Source: Flectonema sp. DT1601 (taxonomy: Eukaryota). From it: a stretch of DNA of 64,000 bases. The notes under the pieces are model-generated. The model saw nothing but the letters and a program-made list of their open reading frames with translations. It made no database searches and was not told the DNA's origin. Positions 52,529 through 62,130 of this stretch are shown here, piece by piece. The number at the start of each line of letters is the position of its first letter. The first letter of the stretch is position 1. Made by a program: the position numbers and the translations under genes. The stretch covers positions 620,001 through 684,000 of the forward strand of contig OZ025799.1 in NCBI GenBank assembly GCA_964019425.1. The letters run 5' to 3'.

Positions 52529-55500
52529 TCAAGATTTGCAAAACGCTGTACCACTTGCAATGCCCGCCCGAAAGGCCACACGAAGGATATCAGCAGCCAG
52601 CTTGTTGTAGCAAGGGGCTTCAAGAATCTTCTGACAGGGAATCCTCAGTTGAAATTCCAGAGCCTCTTCAGGACCCGTGAGTGCAGTAGTGTTATGTCCA
52701 CCCGAGGAATCGATATTTTGGTGCCATTCCAACACTCGAACAAGACGTGCCCGCGCTCCAATTTCATCATCGCAACCAAATTCAGATGCGTAAATCCGTT
52801 TTCTAACGTAATAGATGCTACCTTTAGCTTCCTGTGTGAGCATTGGGTTAAAGGACAATTCCGCTATCGGCAGGGCTGATCCCTGTCTTGAGGAGAATTT
52901 AAATGAAATGGGGGCAGCACCACCAACCGCCGATGTAGGCATCTTTTCCTTGGCTGACTGGACTATCTGAGGGGTGACAAAGTCAAATGTCTCGAATCTA
53001 AATCGCATGTCCGGTATTATTCCACCCCCGAGGATAGTTGTCGACACCCATGAAAGTTGTCTTTCCGCTATGGAAGTAACTATCTCTTCATTCCTGGTGC
53101 TGGTGACGGTCCGAATACCAATTTCAAAACTTCTTGAAACAACTGCAGACAGTTTACCGTACAGATCCACTGAGTCAACAGCTGAACCCTTTTGGGAATC
53201 ACGGAGCTTACTCATCATGTATGCTTCCGTTTTATTCTCAATTATCGCACCATCTGCGCCCATCTGGCATCTGGCAAGAAGTCCAAATCCCGCGTCTTCC
53301 AATTTCCTTTCAATCTCTCCCTGGATAACATCCAGCTCTTGATTACCAGCCCTAGCAATGTGCCGAAACGTCGAGCGCAGTCCTCTTTTCGCCTTCTTTT
53401 TCTTTCCTTTGACTGGGGCCTGTCCGCTCGATATTTCCATCTTTTTCATTACATATTCCTTCTCTTTAGGCGCAGCTTGGAATTTCCTCCGTTCCCACGC
53501 CTTCCGATTTCTTCCCATACTTTCCATCCGTTGGTGCAGCTCCGAGATTGACAGCGACTGACTAGTGTCTGGTAGAGAATCTGAAGCCGACATAATGAGA
53601 AATGTTCCGAAGGAAACGGTGCAATCGTAAAAGGCAAATGTCGACAGCGATGGAAGCTTCGGGATCTGTCTGGCTATGCACTCGGCTAGTGCGTTTCGGA
53701 CGGTAACATCATCGCAGCCGATGTTCTTAAAAATAATTTCCTTAATTGGTTGACAGCTTGACATCTCAATTCTCTGTCTATTATTTTCTTGCTCCGCTTT
53801 TAAACGGAGTTGTAGATCATCACCTTCTGAACCCCATGCAACAATTCCAACAGAACCTTCGAGGTGGTACCGAGAGGATCGAATTCTTGACCTACACGAC
53901 CAATTTAACTCTCTAATGTGTGAGGAAATCTCTCTTTGAACCAGCATAATGCTCCTTCGGTTTCCCGTCGCAACCATGATGAGCTTAGAACCCGTCTCTT
54001 CGAGTTCTACCACTGCTCCGCTCAATCTCGACAGTCGCTCTTCATGAAAAGCTAGAGCTGATCCCACACTGCCGCTTATTCGAGATGGGAGGCATAACTT
54101 GCACACTATCTCATCGTCATCCTGACTGCTCAGCAGTTGCTCTGGACAGCCGGTTGCAAGCAAGCAGTGCTGAGCAATCCTGCTATCGTGAGCAAGAAGG
54201 TTGATAGTTTCTACCGAACAGATTGATGAGACGGTTGACGGACTGAAAAGGTAGCGGTAATTGAATGAAGTTTCAATTGCTGCAGTTCCTATTAAAAAAG
54301 AGTACTTTTTAGCCGTTGAAGAACATGATGTCGACTTGAAAAACCGCAATACCGCGGCACCAGCCATGTCAGCAGGGTCTTCGCTGGGTATCAGGTTATA
54401 AATGTGACCTTTATCCTCAGCTAATAAGGAATTAAGGATTAACACGTGCAGCTCACCAGTACTCAGAATATGCCTCCCGCCATCATTTGTAATACCTGCA
54501 TCCTGTCTAATGACTCCGATAGTCCGTGCCCAGTGCTGGATGAATAGGAATACTGAGTGCGTCCACTGATGCTGAAGAAAGTAAGTTTTCAAACAAAGAG
54601 TTTTCAAAAAACTGCTGACATCTACGGTGAGGTCGAACCACTCCTCTCCCAATCCATCAGGCGGGATGATCGAAAATCGAATAATTGGTACGTTTGCTTT
54701 GAACACTTCAATCTTCTTCACTGCAATATTTCCTAAAAGGCGAGATACAATTTCCAGAGCCCATATCTGTTTGTCACGTAGGGTAGCCATAGATTCATGT
54801 CCAGATTTAAAGAGCATGCATCCAGAAGGTATGATAGCAACAACATCAATATCAGAATAAAGTGAACAAAGATCTTGGGCCACAGAACCAAAGACCTTCA
54901 ACTGAATATGTTGCTCCGAGTCGATCAACGAGTTGATTGTATCCTCTACCAGTGAGACGTATCGCATCTTTCTCTCGCTAATGGCCTTCGTTTCTTGCAT
55001 GTGTCTTCTTCCATAAGACAAAATAGCATCTCCAAGTTGCTTGTGTGAATTCTTTTTTCCCAATGTAGTATTTATTGCTCCACTTTGTCTCAAAACACCC
55101 AACAGAATTCTTCCGTGCAGAAGCCCAAAACTCTTTGCAAATCCATCACTCTGAGAGACCTGGTACCACCACCGAGCAGCTATTTCTTGCTCAGGTGGCG
55201 TTGTGTACATAACTGCAAAACGCTGTTTGGTAAACGTCTGTAGCTGGCAAACACGGCGTCTGATGACTTCTCTAGCTTTGAAAATATTTTTAATTAATGG
55301 ATGCCATGAAATAGCAGTAGAGAGGAGACACTCTGCTTCACTACGCAAGCCATAACTGGTCATAATTTGTCGCATTCCAGAACAGTAAACTCGATAGTCG
55401 TTCAAGGCTTCAGTTTCATAGCTAAGGCAACTTTTAGTTCCCTTTAGCGCTTCCAATAATTCATTTTCAGGTTCAGACAGAGAATTCTGCTGTGGCAGCT

Positions 55501-58500
55501 TACTACCTTCTGGACACAGTGCTCTGCAAACAAGTTGTTGTCCTATCCAGTTGGGGGCTCCAGTGTATTGAAAATCGTATGACTTGGCAGTGCGGTACAG
55601 AGTACCAAGGATTTTATTAGAAACATAGCCGTCGGTTGTCTTTTCCATAAAGTCAGGATGTCCATATTTCTTGATGCGTGTAAAAGCTTCTTCAGGAACA
55701 GAAGGCGGTATGCCGGTCTTTGGGTAGTCTACTGCAAACGATTGTGCTCGAGCAACTTCAATCGCGAGTGGGTTACGCGCACCGTCAACGAACTGGTCGG
55801 AAATCGCTTGGTGCATGTTTGATATCCTCCCTAAGCTGTCGTTGGAGTATACAGAATGGACAAAGTCAGCAATCTCCCAACAGTTTCTTATTTCTTTTAT
55901 CTTGTATTGCTCCGGGCGGGGTGCATTGGCACCGAGGGTCCCATACGGAAGAGGCGTGTCCTCTAACTCTTTGGGAAGAGTAATCTCCTGATCCCAGACA
56001 ACATAAAACTGATCTCCGTCTAAGTCTCCTCCGGAGCAAGACTCAGGAATATTATACAAAGTGTTGTTGTTGCATGGGAATATCACAACATTTTTGTACT
56101 CTCTGAGAGCCGGGCAGTCCACAGCAGTAACAACACGAACATCTCCCGGATGGAGACAAGGATTGCGCCAAACTATAACTTGTTCTTGTGAGAGAATCTC
56201 CTCTTTACCCGCTGGACTATCCTCTCCAAGTTGAACAAATATTTCACCATCTAGAAGCGTACCAGTCGGGTCAGGAATCCCCAGTAGATGACAGCCTTGC
56301 TTGATAGGTATTCTGGCTTTCTTAGTGAGATCTCTCGTACAAACTCGGTAGCTGACCCTACACAGATCCAGAACCAGAGGATCAGCAAATATGTCGCCAG
56401 ATGCTTCTACTCCCGACAAATATGCCTCGTACTCAGCTGCAAAGTCGGGAGGAAGATTTGGGAAAACCGCCGCCTTCATTTCGGTAGCGTCTTCGAATAT
56501 TGTACTTAAAGTATTCAGGCACGAGATGAGATTTGATTCAAGTGCTTTGTGGGGAAAGAACTGGTCTTGTTGTGAAGTGAGTAGAGAAATAATTTCGCGA
56601 TTCAGATGACAAGGTGACCACTTTGCGTGGCGAACAATGCAAAGCGTATTGTCGACATTCTCTTCCGGCATCTGAAACTTCTTCATTGAGGGTCGAATTG
56701 CAATTTTCTTTCCCGAAAGGTCAGCGTCTGTATCCGGTACGGTTACTAAAACACCCTTCACACCCCGCCATCGTATCTGAAAGGCAGACGGCGTAATATG
56801 TAATCCCAACATCGCTGCCACGGATTTGGCTGTTGTGATTGCGATCTTACCAGCCCCATCAGTTAACACTGAGCTGCCGTTACGGCAATGCACGTCCTTG
56901 ATCATAACAGTGCAGCTATCATCGATTTTAATTGTCGGAATATCCGAAGTCATATAAAGGGCAAGCCGCGACAAATACTTAGCAATGGACGCGCTGCCAC
57001 TCGGATCCACTATTTGACCTCTGAATCGAGCAAGCCTCTCGGCTATACTTTGACCTGAGCATGCACCAGGCAAGAACTCGATGTCTACGTACACAGCCTG
57101 CTGCTCCCGTAACTGGCTGGAACTCGCAGCGAAAAAAATATATTCCTTGCCAGCGAAACATTGGGTATCAGAAATTGACTGCTTGACGTAATTGAGTGTT
57201 ACGATGGAATTCAATCGTTGTCGCTGTTCATCCCTAAATACAACAGTGACAAATGGATGTATTCCAAAACGACGGTACAACCTGGAGTCGGCTACAGCAA
57301 GAGGTGTGAGGTACACACACTGTGTCGGGGTTAGCATTGCCCGCTTTATCAAATTATCGGTGTAGTCTAATTTGACTGCAAGGTTGGCTGCCTCGTAGGC
57401 TTTCTTGAACAAATCACATATGGGTGTCCAGTATTCCAGACTGGATTGCATTTCTGTGAGAGCCTGAATAATGCTTTCCTCACATTCCATCTCAGAGATT
57501 AGTAATCGAAGCTTCAGCTCAGCTGCCCTAGTGGAACAACCTAAACGTTGGCTGTGGAGAGCCTGAATCAGCCATTCTATTAAGTGATTACTGTGCGGTG
57601 GGTAAGTCTTGACAGCCTCAAACACTACTTTTACTCGAACATTGTACACAGGGACACCGAAGCTGCTACTTAATAAGACAGTCAGTTCTGAGGGAGGAGG
57701 GCAGTTGTGCATATGAAGGCAAAGGACAGATTGAGACACACCGTTATGTTTTACAGTGCAACGAGTAATATTGCCAAGCATATCCATTCCAAAGACTGGT
57801 GGGGTGCTGTTTAAGGGGAGAAGAATATTGCATTCTTTTTCAGATTCCCATGAAACAGCTATGAATGGATGAATGACCATGGGTGCCAATTCCATCCACA
57901 GATCGCTGATACCGATATGCATACCTGTCTTTATGAAAGACACCCAGCTATCATCTGCGAGTGTTTTTTCACTTGTAAAAACACCTAATTCACTCCATTC
58001 CCCTGTCAGTACAGTTACCTTGTATGATTTAAAAATGAAAGGCATGCCTTTCTGAAACTTCTTTCGGGTCTGCATAGTTGCCCAAATCGACCCTCCCGAA
58101 GATGTCTTAAACGACCAGTTGGAGAATAAATCTCTTTCGTCAGCATGTTGCTCTGTAAATGAACTAGTCAAAGATACGAGGTGACCTGTAGCGGAACCAG
58201 CAGGTAACACTGGGAAAGTATCAACAGGCATATCAGTTATTCGAGAAACAACTAAGTGATTGAGACCAGACTGGTCGAGGCTGTCTAACAATTCCGACTC
58301 AAAATCGATCTCTTGGAAATGTCGCTCAACGGGGTAAATGTACCAAAGCATTAGTGAAAGGTGCTTATCAGCGCAGAGTTCTGCGACCCTTGCACGAGGA
58401 GCAACTCGCCCGTTTTGAATATATTGAATAGTCTGCAGTACTTCAGGTGATGTTGGATGAGTAATAGCACGCACGCTGACGATGCTTTCGAGTTCCCTCT

Positions 58501-60514
58501 CCTTGGCATCCAAGCGCTGTTGGCGAAGCTGCTGGTAATGTGTGACGTAGCAGTGAATTTGACTGTTGGCCTGCCGAGCGCGCCCTCTTGACTGAATATG
58601 AGACCTCAGAGACTTTGGGGGCTGCAATCTTATCACGAAGTCACATTGTGGTACATCAATACCTTCTTCCAGGACATTAGTAGCAACGAGAAGTTTCGTT
58701 GCGCCGGTTCGAAATCGATTTACAGAAGCTTCCTGCTCGTCGAACCACTGCATTCCATCGAAGCCGCTGTGACCAACTACCATCTCAGGATTGTATCGTT
58801 CCGTAATTGCTTGAGACGAGCGCAGTCTTTTAACAGTTTCCCTTGCTACGAGTCGACTTTCTACTAAAATCAACACCCTACAATCGCCTTTGCACTCTGT
58901 CAGTGTTCGTTCAGCCTTCACTATCCGATCTGAAACGTGATTCTCGTACTTGCTTGGAACCTTCGTAGCCAAGACATCGATCTTGGCCCAACAAAACTGA
59001 GGAAAACTGGAAAATATATCCCCAGGATCTCCACTGCGATTGACCCGCGAAGCGATGCTTATGAGGGCACGGGACGCACAATCAATTCCGATTACTTGAA
59101 CCACATCAGTTAAGCTGCAAAGATCTAATATCGTGTCGACGTACTTTGTGATAGTTCTAAGGGTTTCGGGATCTAGACAGATGCGTTGGGGGGATTTGAG
59201 GCTTCCGATACGGCTCTTGAAAATCGCAATATTTCGGGGAAGTAGAAATTGTTCAACGTCTTGCTCAACATCAGGTATCTGTTCTGTGCTCTTTGTCGAC
59301 TTCCTCACTAAGGAATCACGATAGAGCTTTATGCTAGATAGCAGGCATTTCACAAACTGTATTTGTATTTCATTCATACTAATAACAAACCAAGATTCTT
59401 TAACTACATTCTTAGGGACTGAAGGATGCAACACAAAACCGCCAAAGTTGCGTTCCAGTTCTGCAATCTGCATTGCGGGAGAAGGCGGAGAACCCACTTT
59501 GTATGCCGATAAACCTCCCGATACAGGCGAAGCAGTGAGGCCAAGAATTAAAGGTTTATCTGCTGCAGGTAAAGAATGAACTTGTTTGAGCAAAAGGTGG
59601 AAAGGGTGATCATTACGAGCATGATGACATTCGTCGATGATTACACAACAGGTGTTGTTAATAGTTAGGTTTGACTTAGACAGCTTTTCAACCAGACACC
59701 CAGCGGTAGCAACGACAACGTCAAACTTTCCATTAATTATTCCATCAACCATTCTCTGTGATGCCGTCTCGCTACAAAGTAAGCAAATCCGCAATCCAGT
59801 TTCTCTCAGAATCACTTCACCCTGTTGAAAGACTAACGGTATCTTGTCTACTAAAAATAATCCCACCCTACTTGGGTTCATTTTTTTCATTTTGCACAAG
59901 GCCATGGCGCCAACAAGAGTCTTCCCCAACCCTGTAGGTAGGGACAAGATTAGTGAACGACTATGCATCAGCTGCGCAAATGCCTGAATTTGGTAATCAC
60001 GAGGAGGAGTAACAACAAGATCATCCCAACTGTAAGTCATCAAGTCCTGTTGTGATGCACGGACAACAGGAACACGATTTGAATGTTTTGGAGGTGCTGA
60101 TGACACTGCTACTGCCAGTGTGTCGACAGATCCGAAGAAGTTCATATCATTTCTGGTAGTTATGTTGTCCCATCTGGGAGTTTTTGATTTTACGGCAACA
60201 AGTTTCTCCTTCTCTTCGAGGAGTCGCATTCCAGCTACAGACAGCTTTCTCAATGACAGCGCAATGAATGAAACACTTTCAGGGCCGTATGGAGACATTG
60301 TTCCGATCTTTGTGGAACAATGTGGGCACAGTACTGGAGTCATCTTTCTTTTTGTATTCGCTTCGTCTATTATCAGACGTTTCTGTGACCGCAGCCCCCT
60401 CACTATCTCCTGACGAACGATGAGGTGCAATTCCTTCGCACTCTTTTCATAAAAACATATTTCTGAGATGTCGAGAACTTGCTTATAGCACGCGCCACAT
60501 GTAGCGCCCGACAT
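52529..60514 (-). CDS. RIG-I/Dicer-family helicase - RNA-dependent RNA polymerase - terminal nucleotidyltransferase fusion protein (2661 aa)
   Basis: Helicase motifs RDYQ, PTGLGKT (aa 193), DECH (aa 294), LGLTASP, ATNVLEEGID and QSRGRAR (aa 641). RdRP aa about 1056-1641 with TDGAG, SAFQIRW.G.KG, RNPCLHPGD, GGDLDGD (aa 1497) and AVDYPKTG. NTase FGS-x10-DID (aa 1875-1890) plus FDL (D1961). N-terminal CxxC..CxxC domain and a KH-like segment at aa about 2138-2200. Confidence 0.95.
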   Translation of the reverse strand: MSGATCGACYKQVLDISEICFYEKSAKELHLIVRQEIVRGLRSQKRLIIDEANTKRKMTPVLCPHCSTKIGTMSPYGPESVSFIALSLRKLSVAGMRLLEEKEKLVAVKSKTPRWDNITTRNDMNFFGSVDTLAVAVSSAPPKHSNRVPVVRASQQDLMTYSWDDLVVTPPRDYQIQAFAQLMHSRSLILSLPTGLGKTLVGAMALCKMKKMNPSRVGLFLVDKIPLVFQQGEVILRETGLRICLLCSETASQRMVDGIINGKFDVVVATAGCLVEKLSKSNLTINNTCCVIIDECHHARNDHPFHLLLKQVHSLPAADKPLILGLTASPVSGGLSAYKVGSPPSPAMQIAELERNFGGFVLHPSVPKNVVKESWFVISMNEIQIQFVKCLLSSIKLYRDSLVRKSTKSTEQIPDVEQDVEQFLLPRNIAIFKSRIGSLKSPQRICLDPETLRTITKYVDTILDLCSLTDVVQVIGIDCASRALISIASRVNRSGDPGDIFSSFPQFCWAKIDVLATKVPSKYENHVSDRIVKAERTLTECKGDCRVLILVESRLVARETVKRLRSSQAITERYNPEMVVGHSGFDGMQWFDEQEASVNRFRTGATKLLVATNVLEEGIDVPQCDFVIRLQPPKSLRSHIQSRGRARQANSQIHCYVTHYQQLRQQRLDAKERELESIVSVRAITHPTSPEVLQTIQYIQNGRVAPRARVAELCADKHLSLMLWYIYPVERHFQEIDFESELLDSLDQSGLNHLVVSRITDMPVDTFPVLPAGSATGHLVSLTSSFTEQHADERDLFSNWSFKTSSGGSIWATMQTRKKFQKGMPFIFKSYKVTVLTGEWSELGVFTSEKTLADDSWVSFIKTGMHIGISDLWMELAPMVIHPFIAVSWESEKECNILLPLNSTPPVFGMDMLGNITRCTVKHNGVSQSVLCLHMHNCPPPSELTVLLSSSFGVPVYNVRVKVVFEAVKTYPPHSNHLIEWLIQALHSQRLGCSTRAAELKLRLLISEMECEESIIQALTEMQSSLEYWTPICDLFKKAYEAANLAVKLDYTDNLIKRAMLTPTQCVYLTPLAVADSRLYRRFGIHPFVTVVFRDEQRQRLNSIVTLNYVKQSISDTQCFAGKEYIFFAASSSQLREQQAVYVDIEFLPGACSGQSIAERLARFRGQIVDPSGSASIAKYLSRLALYMTSDIPTIKIDDSCTVMIKDVHCRNGSSVLTDGAGKIAITTAKSVAAMLGLHITPSAFQIRWRGVKGVLVTVPDTDADLSGKKIAIRPSMKKFQMPEENVDNTLCIVRHAKWSPCHLNREIISLLTSQQDQFFPHKALESNLISCLNTLSTIFEDATEMKAAVFPNLPPDFAAEYEAYLSGVEASGDIFADPLVLDLCRVSYRVCTRDLTKKARIPIKQGCHLLGIPDPTGTLLDGEIFVQLGEDSPAGKEEILSQEQVIVWRNPCLHPGDVRVVTAVDCPALREYKNVVIFPCNNNTLYNIPESCSGGDLDGDQFYVVWDQEITLPKELEDTPLPYGTLGANAPRPEQYKIKEIRNCWEIADFVHSVYSNDSLGRISNMHQAISDQFVDGARNPLAIEVARAQSFAVDYPKTGIPPSVPEEAFTRIKKYGHPDFMEKTTDGYVSNKILGTLYRTAKSYDFQYTGAPNWIGQQLVCRALCPEGSKLPQQNSLSEPENELLEALKGTKSCLSYETEALNDYRVYCSGMRQIMTSYGLRSEAECLLSTAISWHPLIKNIFKAREVIRRRVCQLQTFTKQRFAVMYTTPPEQEIAARWWYQVSQSDGFAKSFGLLHGRILLGVLRQSGAINTTLGKKNSHKQLGDAILSYGRRHMQETKAISERKMRYVSLVEDTINSLIDSEQHIQLKVFGSVAQDLCSLYSDIDVVAIIPSGCMLFKSGHESMATLRDKQIWALEIVSRLLGNIAVKKIEVFKANVPIIRFSIIPPDGLGEEWFDLTVDVSSFLKTLCLKTYFLQHQWTHSVFLFIQHWARTIGVIRQDAGITNDGGRHILSTGELHVLILNSLLAEDKGHIYNLIPSEDPADMAGAAVLRFFKSTSCSSTAKKYSFLIGTAAIETSFNYRYLFSPSTVSSICSVETINLLAHDSRIAQHCLLATGCPEQLLSSQDDDEIVCKLCLPSRISGSVGSALAFHEERLSRLSGAVVELEETGSKLIMVATGNRRSIMLVQREISSHIRELNWSCRSRIRSSRYHLEGSVGIVAWGSEGDDLQLRLKAEQENNRQRIEMSSCQPIKEIIFKNIGCDDVTVRNALAECIARQIPKLPSLSTFAFYDCTVSFGTFLIMSASDSLPDTSQSLSISELHQRMESMGRNRKAWERRKFQAAPKEKEYVMKKMEISSGQAPVKGKKKKAKRGLRSTFRHIARAGNQELDVIQGEIERKLEDAGFGLLARCQMGADGAIIENKTEAYMMSKLRDSQKGSAVDSVDLYGKLSAVVSRSFEIGIRTVTSTRNEEIVTSIAERQLSWVSTTILGGGIIPDMRFRFETFDFVTPQIVQSAKEKMPTSAVGGAAPISFKFSSRQGSALPIAELSFNPMLTQEAKGSIYYVRKRIYASEFGCDDEIGARARLVRVLEWHQNIDSSGGHNTTALTGPEEALEFQLRIPCQKILEAPCYNKLAADILRVAFRAGIASGTAFCKS

Positions 60515-60612: not shown

Positions 60613-62130
60613 TTACAACGTATCAATTAAATACGGATCAGTGCAAGACTCTGCAGGGAATAAGCCTATACTCTTATACGTAGCTGGGTTACCCTGATGA
60701 TAGGAAGAGTTAACTCGAACAGCTGTAATATTCAACGGCAGGGCCGATATCTCACTGCGGGCAAATCGGATAATTCTTTTGTGCCCAACAGTGGTTCCGT
60801 TGAACACTGAAGCGGTCACAGATTCAAACCCGAAAGTCTTATTTCCTGAGCACGGGGAATATGAAGAGCAAGGTACTAACCAGGGAATTGCTCTCCACTC
60901 CAGGGAAACTTGTACCTCAACAGTGAAGTTGGTGATGCGCAACCCTTGTGAAATATCTTCGCGGAGCCAAATTCTATCACAAAGTGGAGGGTAATCAGGC
61001 ACAATAGGAATCTTAAATACGATCGATGGCTCGTCAGAACCATTTATTTCAGCAAATGGCTCGTGATAGCAAGTGACACGCCACTCTCCAAATTCTCTGT
61101 ATCGTGATAAATATTGATCAGGTATACTTCCAGTGTAGTTTGGGGTAATTCCAATGAGCAAATTTGCTCCAAGACCGACTGTTGAGTCGTGCTCGTTAGC
61201 GAGCTCTATAAGGGTTTTAATGGACTGGTTGGGAGCCCACCAGTTGTCAAAGTTACTGCTGAAAGGGACAAATCCCTCGTCAGGTGCCACAACACCTCCT
61301 GTAAAAACTCCTGGGCCGGTATAATGTGACGATGGGGCATTTAAATAATTTGGTTGTGAAACAGCTCCTTGTTCATTTCCGATTCCCCGCAACAGCTGCT
61401 CATTCCCAGGTCCTCTTAAGAGTACTGCTGAGGGGTTCAATGTTTTAATCTTTGATGTTATTTTACTGATGTCATCCTTTCCAAACCCAACGAAGGAATC
61501 TTTTTCGAACCAAATTTCAGTCCAAGGGTATTTCCCCCACAATTCAGTCAGTAGTGATTCCGTTACCTGAACATATTGCTCAAAAGATATTTTAGGGCAG
61601 AACTTTCCGTTATTAATGATAGTCTTATTCCACCCAAGCCAATAATTTTGGGACATTGAGAAATGCACACCGGGGGAAATGCCAGCTTTCTGAGAGAGAT
61701 TGACGAATTCAGCCACAACATCAATCGGACCTAAAGATGACTGACGGGCTGTGTAGTTGTAAGTTCCCCATTGTGGGATCTTCACATTCGTATCCCACAG
61801 TAGATGACCACAAGATCCAGAAACTGGGAGAATAGAATAGCCTGCGTTAATGTTAATAAGCGCTTGGTACCATCCATGTATATCAACACCCACTTTGAAA
61901 TCCTCTGCCGGTGGGGGTTCCCTTCCGTTACTGCATCCGTCACCTTTAGGTATCCAGGGACCTCCAGGCATCCCTATCCCGAAAAAAACGTAACCACCAA
62001 TTTCTTTATCCATCCACGTTAACTGTTCCCTAGAAGGTGTTTCTCCGTGTAATAAGTCGTGTGGTTGGTGATATGTCGGAATACCTATTCCGAAGTTAAC
62101 AACTCCCAATACAATACCGAGGCGTTGCAT
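60613..62130 (-). CDS. GH29 alpha-L-fucosidase homolog with altered active-site motifs, secreted
   Basis: PSREQLTW..EIGGYVFFG, LLWDT, DVVAEFV....K.GI.PG, LTELWGKY..EIWF, TVG.GANLLIGITP..TG.IP and LREDISQGLRI..F..TVGHKRI follow the GH29 layout. The first ATG (62130) starts a signal-like MQRLGIVLGVV; the track start at 62286 is a TTG. Confidence 0.8.
   Translation of the reverse strand: MQRLGIVLGVVNFGIGIPTYHQPHDLLHGETPSREQLTWMDKEIGGYVFFGIGMPGGPWIPKGDGCSNGREPPPAEDFKVGVDIHGWYQALININAGYSILPVSGSCGHLLWDTNVKIPQWGTYNYTARQSSLGPIDVVAEFVNLSQKAGISPGVHFSMSQNYWLGWNKTIINNGKFCPKISFEQYVQVTESLLTELWGKYPWTEIWFEKDSFVGFGKDDISKITSKIKTLNPSAVLLRGPGNEQLLRGIGNEQGAVSQPNYLNAPSSHYTGPGVFTGGVVAPDEGFVPFSSNFDNWWAPNQSIKTLIELANEHDSTVGLGANLLIGITPNYTGSIPDQYLSRYREFGEWRVTCYHEPFAEINGSDEPSIVFKIPIVPDYPPLCDRIWLREDISQGLRITNFTVEVQVSLEWRAIPWLVPCSSYSPCSGNKTFGFESVTASVFNGTTVGHKRIIRFARSEISALPLNITAVRVNSSYHQGNPATYKSIGLFPAESCTDPYLIDTL

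Follow-up and report, generated by a model that had tools for sequence, protein, structure and literature searches.

The 64,000-nucleotide stretch of contig OZ025799.1 from Flectonema sp. DT1601 (assembly GCA_964019425.1, positions 620,001 to 684,000; hereafter called the "window") carries, on its minus strand, a single uninterrupted open reading frame (ORF) of 2661 amino acids (60514..52529), in which a zinc module, a DExH helicase, an RdRP (RNA-dependent RNA polymerase), and a nucleotidyltransferase follow one another in this order. As judged from its predicted fold and from sequence profiles, the zinc module is a real homolog of the C-terminal domain (CTD) of RIG-I-like receptors (RLRs), placed in a permuted position at the head of a known but under-annotated family, and the protein is not an RLR. 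The helicase–RdRP fusion is already published, and the CTD-like head was not encountered in the literature searched. We consider it reasonably probable that this zinc β-tent homolog of the RLR/DRH CTDs, heading the helicase–RdRP–nucleotidyltransferase family, binds duplex RNA for the helicase to clamp.

Predicted fold of the N-terminal module

The first-pass annotation, made from the sequence alone, had described a CxxC..H..CxxC..G..Y motif at 60514..60230 (minus strand; residues 1–95 of the 2661-residue ORF), and the residues are present as described: C6-G-A-C9, H30-L-I-V33, V61-L-C63-P-H-C66-S-T-K-I-G71, Y76, and A85-L-S-L-R-K-L-S-V93. The two CxxC pairs (C6, C9, C63, and C66) are the predicted zinc ligands, and residues 37–62 form a basic loop. 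The N-terminal position given for the domain also holds, while its end at residue 95 has to be moved: the domain runs to about residue 128 (60131), and the RLR-specific tail, consisting of a helix and a strand in residues 96–131, had been omitted. The K104-L105 residues of the window copy sit at the K-W position of the family and the RLRs.

The AlphaFold (AF2) model of the module, calculated from a 35-row alignment, has a pLDDT of 93.4 and a pTM of 0.86. When the model is compared with 48,161 representative chains by VIA-align, ranks 1–9, comprising all of the matches with Z ≥ 8, are the CTDs of LGP2, MDA5, RIG-I, DRH-1, and DRH-3. These nine matches align 102–110 residues with root mean square deviations of 3.0–4.0 and Z values of 8.8–10.8 (LGP2 10.8, MDA5 10.2, duck RIG-I 10.1, down to DRH-3 8.8), and extend to model residues 124–132. 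The other β-tent chains form a lower tier (Z 5.2–6.9; MsrB1 6.9, Mis18 6.8, cereblon 6.5, YPEL5 5.6, and also MSS4), and their alignments end at model residues 94–98, thus without the tail. Consistently, the best Foldseek match is the DRH-3 CTD in complex with 5′-triphosphate (5′-ppp) RNA (E 5.5e-4, TMq 0.56), and the isolated RLR CTDs have TMq values of 0.52–0.56, as compared to 0.40 for Mis18a and 0.34 for cereblon.

The sequence profiles lead to the same proteins. The family profile places the DRH-3 CTD first in the PDB (E 2.3e-5) and MsrB second, and it aligns chicken MDA5 over profile positions 3–98, with the K-W motif included. When the family is aligned with 106 RLR CTDs by HHalign, the result is 94.4% with an E-value of 8.7e-8 over 100 columns. 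Reciprocally, the family hidden Markov model (HMM) matches 33 of 119 RLRs and the RLR HMM matches 56 of 186 family-set proteins (independent E-value < 0.01), with 0 of 156 other proteins matched by either. P0151, one of the members, scores above the Pfam cut-off for RIG-I_C-RD (28.7 versus 25.6 bits; profile 2–115 of 117). The window copy scores 19.8 bits against an independent HMM of the 106 RLR CTDs, which is reached by 0 of 500 full shuffles and by 1 of 500 shuffles with the cysteines fixed. A phmmer search of the PDB with residues 1–150 gave no useful match, and the family profile was required; among the viral structures searched with the module, there was no match at E ≤ 0.001.

The structure ranking and the reciprocal sequence profiles agree independently. 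In our judgment, the homology of the module with the RLR CTD is very probable, and the model and the profiles support a specifically RLR-CTD-like assignment, neither a generic zinc ribbon nor a plain Yippee domain. The likeness to the RLR CTD proposed in the first-pass annotation is thereby supported.

A widespread family with the module at its head

How widely is this architecture distributed? The search with residues 1–700 was evaluated on the best 120 of 150 matches. Among the matches listed, besides P0002 (a second public record of the gene, described below), 39 proteins have both helicase and RdRP Pfam domains, and the rest are mostly Dicers. The named helicase–RdRP relatives are from Prorocentrum, Hydra, Artemia, the sponge Oopsacas, Aphanomyces, Bremia, Hyaloperonospora, Riccia, Naegleria, Dictyostelium, Cavenderia, Acytostelium, and Rhodomonas, and the module-headed ones cover dinoflagellate, oomycete, dictyostelid, cryptophyte, streptophyte, sponge, cnidarian, and crustacean groups. 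Their N-termini display a common CxxC...CxxC...G...W pattern. The module is detected in 36 of the 39 relatives listed (≥ 15 bits against the family HMM), a count that is partly circular, as 34 of those 36 built the HMM. Alignment A1 leaves out five relatives, namely P0020 and P0036 (near-duplicates; 128 and 35 bits) and three below 15 bits. In P0033 from D. discoideum, the motif is present and contains long inserts (8.5 bits); P0032 and P0039 start at or just before the helicase. A widespread helicase–RdRP family thus usually begins with the module, which is not a one-off. The idea of a permuted RLR peculiar to a protist is not supported, since sponges, Hydra, and Artemia are among the organisms with the module-headed enzyme.

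When 1.84 billion representatives were searched with the profile, 279 proteins matched at E ≤ 0.001, with 150 of the 279 listed. Among the matches listed, 140 modules are near-complete: a Walker A motif follows 81 of them, 33 are terminal on proteins without a helicase, and the other 26, for the most part fragments, are unclassified. The distance from the module end to Walker A has a median of 61 residues (n=88).

Other arrangements of the module were also observed. In at least six members (P0024, P0157, P0171, P0256, P0258, and P0259), dsrm domains directly precede the module, giving the order dsRBD(n)-CTD-helicase(-RdRP), where dsRBD denotes a double-stranded RNA (dsRNA)-binding domain. In the 33 helicase-free proteins (e.g., P0140, P0176, P0184, P0189, P0191, P0195, and P0204), the module alone ends a low-complexity chain. 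The histidine, the K-W motif, and several basic residues are kept in these standalone modules. Of eight that were placed in a tree, seven group in one clade (99/96) within the RdRP-type modules; they possibly serve to bind RNA ends or as decoys, in the manner of a free CTD. We rejected them as candidates for non-animal RLRs, as no helicase is present. Finally, in P0190 from Mallomonas annulata, another protein comes after the module; there was no match for it in the PDB, and its end resembles the start of the ZNFX1/Hrr1-type superfamily 1 (SF1) helicases. P0190 may represent a second fusion of the module to an RdRP-associated helicase.

Relationships of the helicase

The module precedes a helicase of the Dicer/RLR type on one chain with an RdRP, just as the first-pass annotation had it, and the PDB neighbours of this helicase are the Dicer helicases, LGP2, RIG-I, and MDA5. 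Trees of 81 rows (FastTree) and 38 rows (IQ-TREE), both rooted with Hef/FANCM-like proteins, place it more closely. All 29 RdRP helicases fall into one group apart from the Dicers in the FastTree (support 85), and all 12 are grouped in the IQ-TREE (87/71), where the window helicase belongs to a six-member subclade (100/95). The RLR helicases form a 100/100 clade that excludes the window helicase; the RLR rows are all relatives of one match, and one of them is named, from a sponge. For the sister grouping, 1000 bootstraps gave RdRP+Dicer 567 times, RdRP+RLR 407 times, and RLR+Dicer three times, and the approximately unbiased (AU) test did not reject RdRP+RLR (p 0.36), with p 0.066 for RLR+Dicer, under a narrow sampling of RLRs. 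The grouping agrees with PMC4791657, excerpts of which describe the RDR helicases as forming one clade that is ancient and separate from Dicer. The unrooted module tree has a long branch between the family modules and the RLR CTDs, and gives no direction of transfer.

P0266, a eukaryotic protein, combines dsRBDs, a DExH helicase, and a further dsRBD, without the module, RdRP, or RNase III, and its helicase takes no clear place among those of Dicer, the RLRs, and the RdRP proteins.

These results bear on the RLR-like identity that had been proposed for the whole protein. A CTD-like domain together with a helicase of the RLR/Dicer group could suggest an immune receptor of the RIG-I-like type, permuted in its domain order and signalling upon RNA sensing. 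We hold such a receptor to be very improbable. The 2661-residue protein begins with the module and has no Pfam match to a CARD at E ≤ 1 and none to a death fold; its helicase is in the RdRP-helicase group, outside the 100/100 RLR clade; the active-site motifs of an RdRP and a nucleotidyltransferase are on the same chain; and the Dictyostelium relatives function in RNA silencing, according to excerpts of PMC3661229.

Putative RNA-binding residues and alternative readings

Conservation was counted over the 81 helicase-linked family modules among the matches listed and the 106 RLR CTDs, with the columns mapped by HMM alignment. The helicase-linked modules keep the four zinc cysteines (78–81 of 81), the glycine after the second CxxC (76), the tryptophan of the K-W motif (78) with a preceding K/R (62), and the histidine after the first CxxC (52). 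In DRH-3, the triphosphate is bound by K988, K990, K992, K993, and R1016 and the RNA backbone by the KWK motif; RIG-I uses K858–K861 (excerpts of PMC8464030). The K858-like column has K/R in 32 of 81 family modules versus 85 of 106 RLR CTDs, and the window copy has K57 there. Basic columns particular to the family lie at R34 (69/81), K90 (47/81), and R121 (62/81), and the loop before the second CxxC contains seven K/R residues in the window copy, with medians of four in the family and five in the RLR CTDs. A basic RNA-binding surface on the module is plausible.

Several observations weigh against our reading of the module as an RNA-binding RLR-CTD homolog. With regard to kinship, the sequence identity to the RLR CTDs is 13–17%. 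Pfam favours Yippee-Mis18 over RIG-I_C-RD, both for the window copy (PF03226, E 2.3e-5, 24.9 bits versus a cut-off of 26.6; PF11648, E 0.01, 16.5 bits, under the gathering cut-off of 25.6) and among the members (18 versus 10 of 35). The ESM Atlas gave only other β-tent families (0.82–0.86, lead level) and no RLR. AlphaFold on the single sequence reaches a pLDDT of only 38.8, so that the module model depends on the alignment. After motif VI, the helicase has a weak and about equal likeness to RLR (15%) and Dicer (12%), and no second pincer helix of the RLR kind could be made out there. With regard to RNA binding, the K861-like column has K/R in 35 of 81 family modules versus 95 of 106 RLR CTDs (P in the window copy), and the third lysine column, presumably that of K888 in RIG-I, in 10 of 81 versus 81 of 106 (S in the window copy). 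L105 of the window copy replaces the near-invariant tryptophan, which is absent in 3 of 81 members, and the net charge has a median of +3 among the family modules versus +7 in the RLR CTDs, with +8 in the window copy.

Could the module and the RLR CTD share the β-tent fold only, having been recruited independently from Yippee/Mis18/MsrB-like ancestors? The low identity, the long branch in the module tree, and the best helicase tree, which joins the RdRP helicases with Dicer (57% bootstrap) and not with the RLRs (41%), would be consistent with this. Such a double recruitment is nevertheless quite improbable, considering the gap of about 2 Z units between the RLR CTDs and all of the other β-tent chains, the common extra C-terminal elements and K-W motif, the reciprocal profile matches, and the partner helicase of the same subfamily.

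A second alternative retains the homology with the RLR CTD and assigns to the module a structural or protein-binding role, as in Mis18/Yippee and cereblon CULT, by which it would recruit Dicer, Argonaute, or a cofactor without RNA binding. The weakly conserved 5′-ppp lysine columns, the tryptophan lost from the window copy, the larger number of members that Pfam assigns to Yippee-Mis18, and the occurrence of the module alone on the 33 helicase-free low-complexity proteins would fit this role. We regard it as unlikely, because the structure and profile match covers the RLR-specific tail that the other β-tents lack, most members keep the K-W motif, dsrm precedes the module in several proteins, and the distance to the dsRNA helicase is short and conserved.

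Does the module discriminate the 5′ end of the RNA? As a special case of our preferred reading, in which the module binds duplex RNA, it could be a true 5′-ppp sensor of the kind found in RIG-I and DRH-3 and pick out either the ends of viral RNA or what an RdRP makes de novo. Both Foldseek and the profile rank the DRH-3 CTD first, which prefers 5′-ppp RNA (excerpts of PMC8464030), and the basic loop before the second CxxC, K57 at the K858-like column, and H30 are in place. However, the K861-like and K888-like lysines are absent from the window copy and poorly conserved in the family, and the CTDs of LGP2 and MDA5, which are not strict 5′-ppp sensors (excerpts of PMC8464030), score structurally at least as high. 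The 5′-ppp specificity is doubtful because the window copy lacks the near-invariant tryptophan and two of the three 5′-triphosphate-type lysines. A RIG-I-type triphosphate pocket is not well supported by the residues, the window copy is atypical and its strict 5′-ppp selectivity unlikely, and we give a sensor of this kind only a small chance.

Proposed working of the enzyme

Based on our preferred reading, we propose that the enzyme would act as a one-chain RNA-silencing amplifier, comparable to C. elegans DRH-3 bound to its RdRP. First, the basic face of the module would bind a duplex, most likely the template-product duplex of the RdRP, or else incoming viral or transposon dsRNA. The linker of about 45 residues to Hel1 would replace the pincer to Hel2, and the module would help to close the helicase ring, as the CTD does in the RLRs. 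The ATPase, stimulated by dsRNA, would then travel on the duplex and thereby feed or clear the polymerase, and the nucleotidyltransferase would tail the RNA ends. The output would be siRNA (small interfering RNA) precursors for silencing, and not signalling.

The presence of the module would also suggest how the helicase–RdRP polymerases choose their RNA. This is directly testable in Dictyostelium, for which rrp knockouts exist (excerpts of PMC3661229).

Possible implications for the origin of the RIG-I sensor domain

The RLR CTD has so far been treated as an animal domain. The sensor domain likely predates the animals, because the module heads related enzymes from many eukaryotic groups, and a bearing on the origin of the RLRs is plausible. 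An RLR-origin review derives the RLRs from a core-domain fusion in invertebrates; the excerpts of it leave RdRP unmentioned, and the term "RdRP" occurs 0 times (PMC2686710). A CTD homolog on non-animal helicase–RdRP proteins would provide a concrete pre-animal source, and would link antiviral RNA silencing to RIG-I sensing. As a tentative scenario, to which we give somewhat less than an even chance, the RIG-I sensor domain would be older than the animals and born as the head of an ancient eukaryotic CTD-helicase-RdRP-nucleotidyltransferase silencing enzyme. The animal RLRs would have arisen from the front half of this enzyme, which would have lost the polymerase and been circularly permuted from CTD-helicase to helicase-CTD. 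If this is true, the nematode DRH-3 working with an RdRP echoes the ancestral partnership.

Features of the ORF and its neighbours

The features of the ORF are summarized in Table 1. Within the helicase, Pfam delimits DEAD/ResIII at residues 171–330 and Helicase_C at residues 580–646; motifs Q, I (PTGLGKT), II (DECHH), III, V, and VI (QSRGRAR) read intact in the sequence, and one bridge helix follows. The catalytic DLDGD of the RdRP (residues 1497–1501) and the GS...DxD motif of the nucleotidyltransferase also read intact. The second half of the linker between the module and Hel1 has a family-conserved P-I-x-F-P...F-x-W-like pattern. The C-terminal region gave no match in Pfam, the PDB, or the ESM Atlas; by eye its start looks KH-like, and its G, R, W, and E columns are conserved across the family.

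Table 1. Features of the module-headed helicase–RdRP protein (positions in the window)
Feature	Position	Strand	Basis
RLR-CTD-like zinc module + DExH helicase + RdRP + nucleotidyltransferase + C-terminal region	52529..60514	-	2661-residue ORF; both Pfam domains, helicase and RdRP, in 39 relatives among the matches listed
RLR-CTD-like β-tent zinc module, residues 1–128	60131..60514	-	predicted model, Pfam, profiles
Linker from module to Hel1, residues 129–170	60005..60130	-	family alignment
Dicer/RLR-type DExH helicase, residues 171–~685	58460..60004	-	Pfam DEAD/ResIII/Helicase_C; PDB matches Dicer, LGP2, RIG-I, MDA5
Eukaryotic RdRP domain, residues 1061–1642	55589..57334	-	PF05183, E 6e-121
Pol-beta-type nucleotidyltransferase (MTPAP/TUTase-like), residues 1838–1948	54671..55003	-	PF22600, E 2.4e-8
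C-terminal region, residues ~2130–2661	52532..54127	-	conserved in family alignment

The module is the N-terminus of the protein, unless it is spliced to an exon further upstream, because an in-frame stop lies 11 codons upstream of the ORF start and the previous gene ends at 60613, 98 bp away. This upstream neighbour (60613–62130, minus strand) is an α-L-fucosidase-like gene (PF01120, E 4.6e-8), which is apparently unrelated.

The second public record of the gene, P0002, is identical to residue 1507 and undergoes a frame shift just after the DLDGD motif, giving a 1516-residue product. This frame shift is probably an assembly indel. The 2661-residue reading of the window fits the family, because the relatives continue beyond this point.

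Comparison with known systems

The module resembles the RLR/DRH CTDs (PF11648; PDB 3eqt, 3ga3, 4a2v, 6m6r, and 9t99) in its predicted fold over the whole domain, the C4 zinc site, the histidine after the first CxxC, the glycine after the second, the K-W motif at the level of the family, and the partner helicase of the same subfamily. In contrast to the RLR CTD, it is N-terminal to the helicase and not after the pincer, shares its chain with an RdRP and a nucleotidyltransferase and with no CARD, occurs far outside the animals, and poorly keeps the 5′-ppp lysines, and the window copy lacks the tryptophan and stays below the Pfam cut-off. The whole order is helicase-pincer-CTD in the RLRs and CTD-like-helicase-RdRP-nucleotidyltransferase here. 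The RLRs carry N-terminal CARDs, which are absent in LGP2. Yippee/Mis18, cereblon CULT, MsrB, and MSS4 share the core fold with the module and, in most of them, the C4 zinc site (Z 5.2–6.9), but they align only with residues 1–98, and lack the tail of residues 96–131 with the K-W motif.

The association of an RdRP with a nucleotidyltransferase is also found in the RNA-directed RNA polymerase complexes (RDRCs) of S. pombe (Rdp1-Hrr1-Cid12), which also contains a helicase, and Tetrahymena (Rdr1-Rdn1/2). These RDRCs consist of separate subunits and are not known to contain an RLR CTD, and Hrr1 is an SF1 helicase.

The closest published architectures are the Dictyostelium RrpA/B/C, the oomycete RDR, and the Hydra and Nematostella RDRs, in which a helicase is followed by an RdRP with DLDGD (excerpts of PMC4791657 and PMC3661229). 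The window helicase groups with those of these proteins. The RdRPs of such fusions belong to the gamma class according to PMC4791657. RrpC is required for small-RNA spreading (excerpts of PMC3661229). As published, only the helicase and RdRP domains of these fusions are described, with no mention of the N-terminal module in the excerpts of PMC4791657 and PMC3661229; neither "RIG-I" nor "zinc" appears in the main text of either paper, "RIG-I" is likewise absent from the main texts of PMC6396948 and PMC10080066, and the excerpts of PMC10328071 do not mention a CTD-like module. A full-text literature search found no title or abstract describing an RLR CTD on an RdRP; supplements and subscription papers were outside its scope, and a prior mention or an automated annotation is possible.

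Functionally, the nearest counterpart is the pair of DRH-3 and the RdRP RRF-1 in C. elegans, in which a CTD, a duplex-activated ATPase, and an RdRP act together (excerpts of PMC8464030 and PMC3590228). DRH-3 binds RRF-1 and is required for the synthesis of the 22G-RNAs, which are secondary siRNAs (excerpts of PMC8464030 and PMC3590228). The nematode activities reside in separate proteins, and DRH-3 is of the RLR type with the canonical helicase-CTD order, whereas the CTD-like module, the helicase, and the RdRP are joined in one chain in the window.

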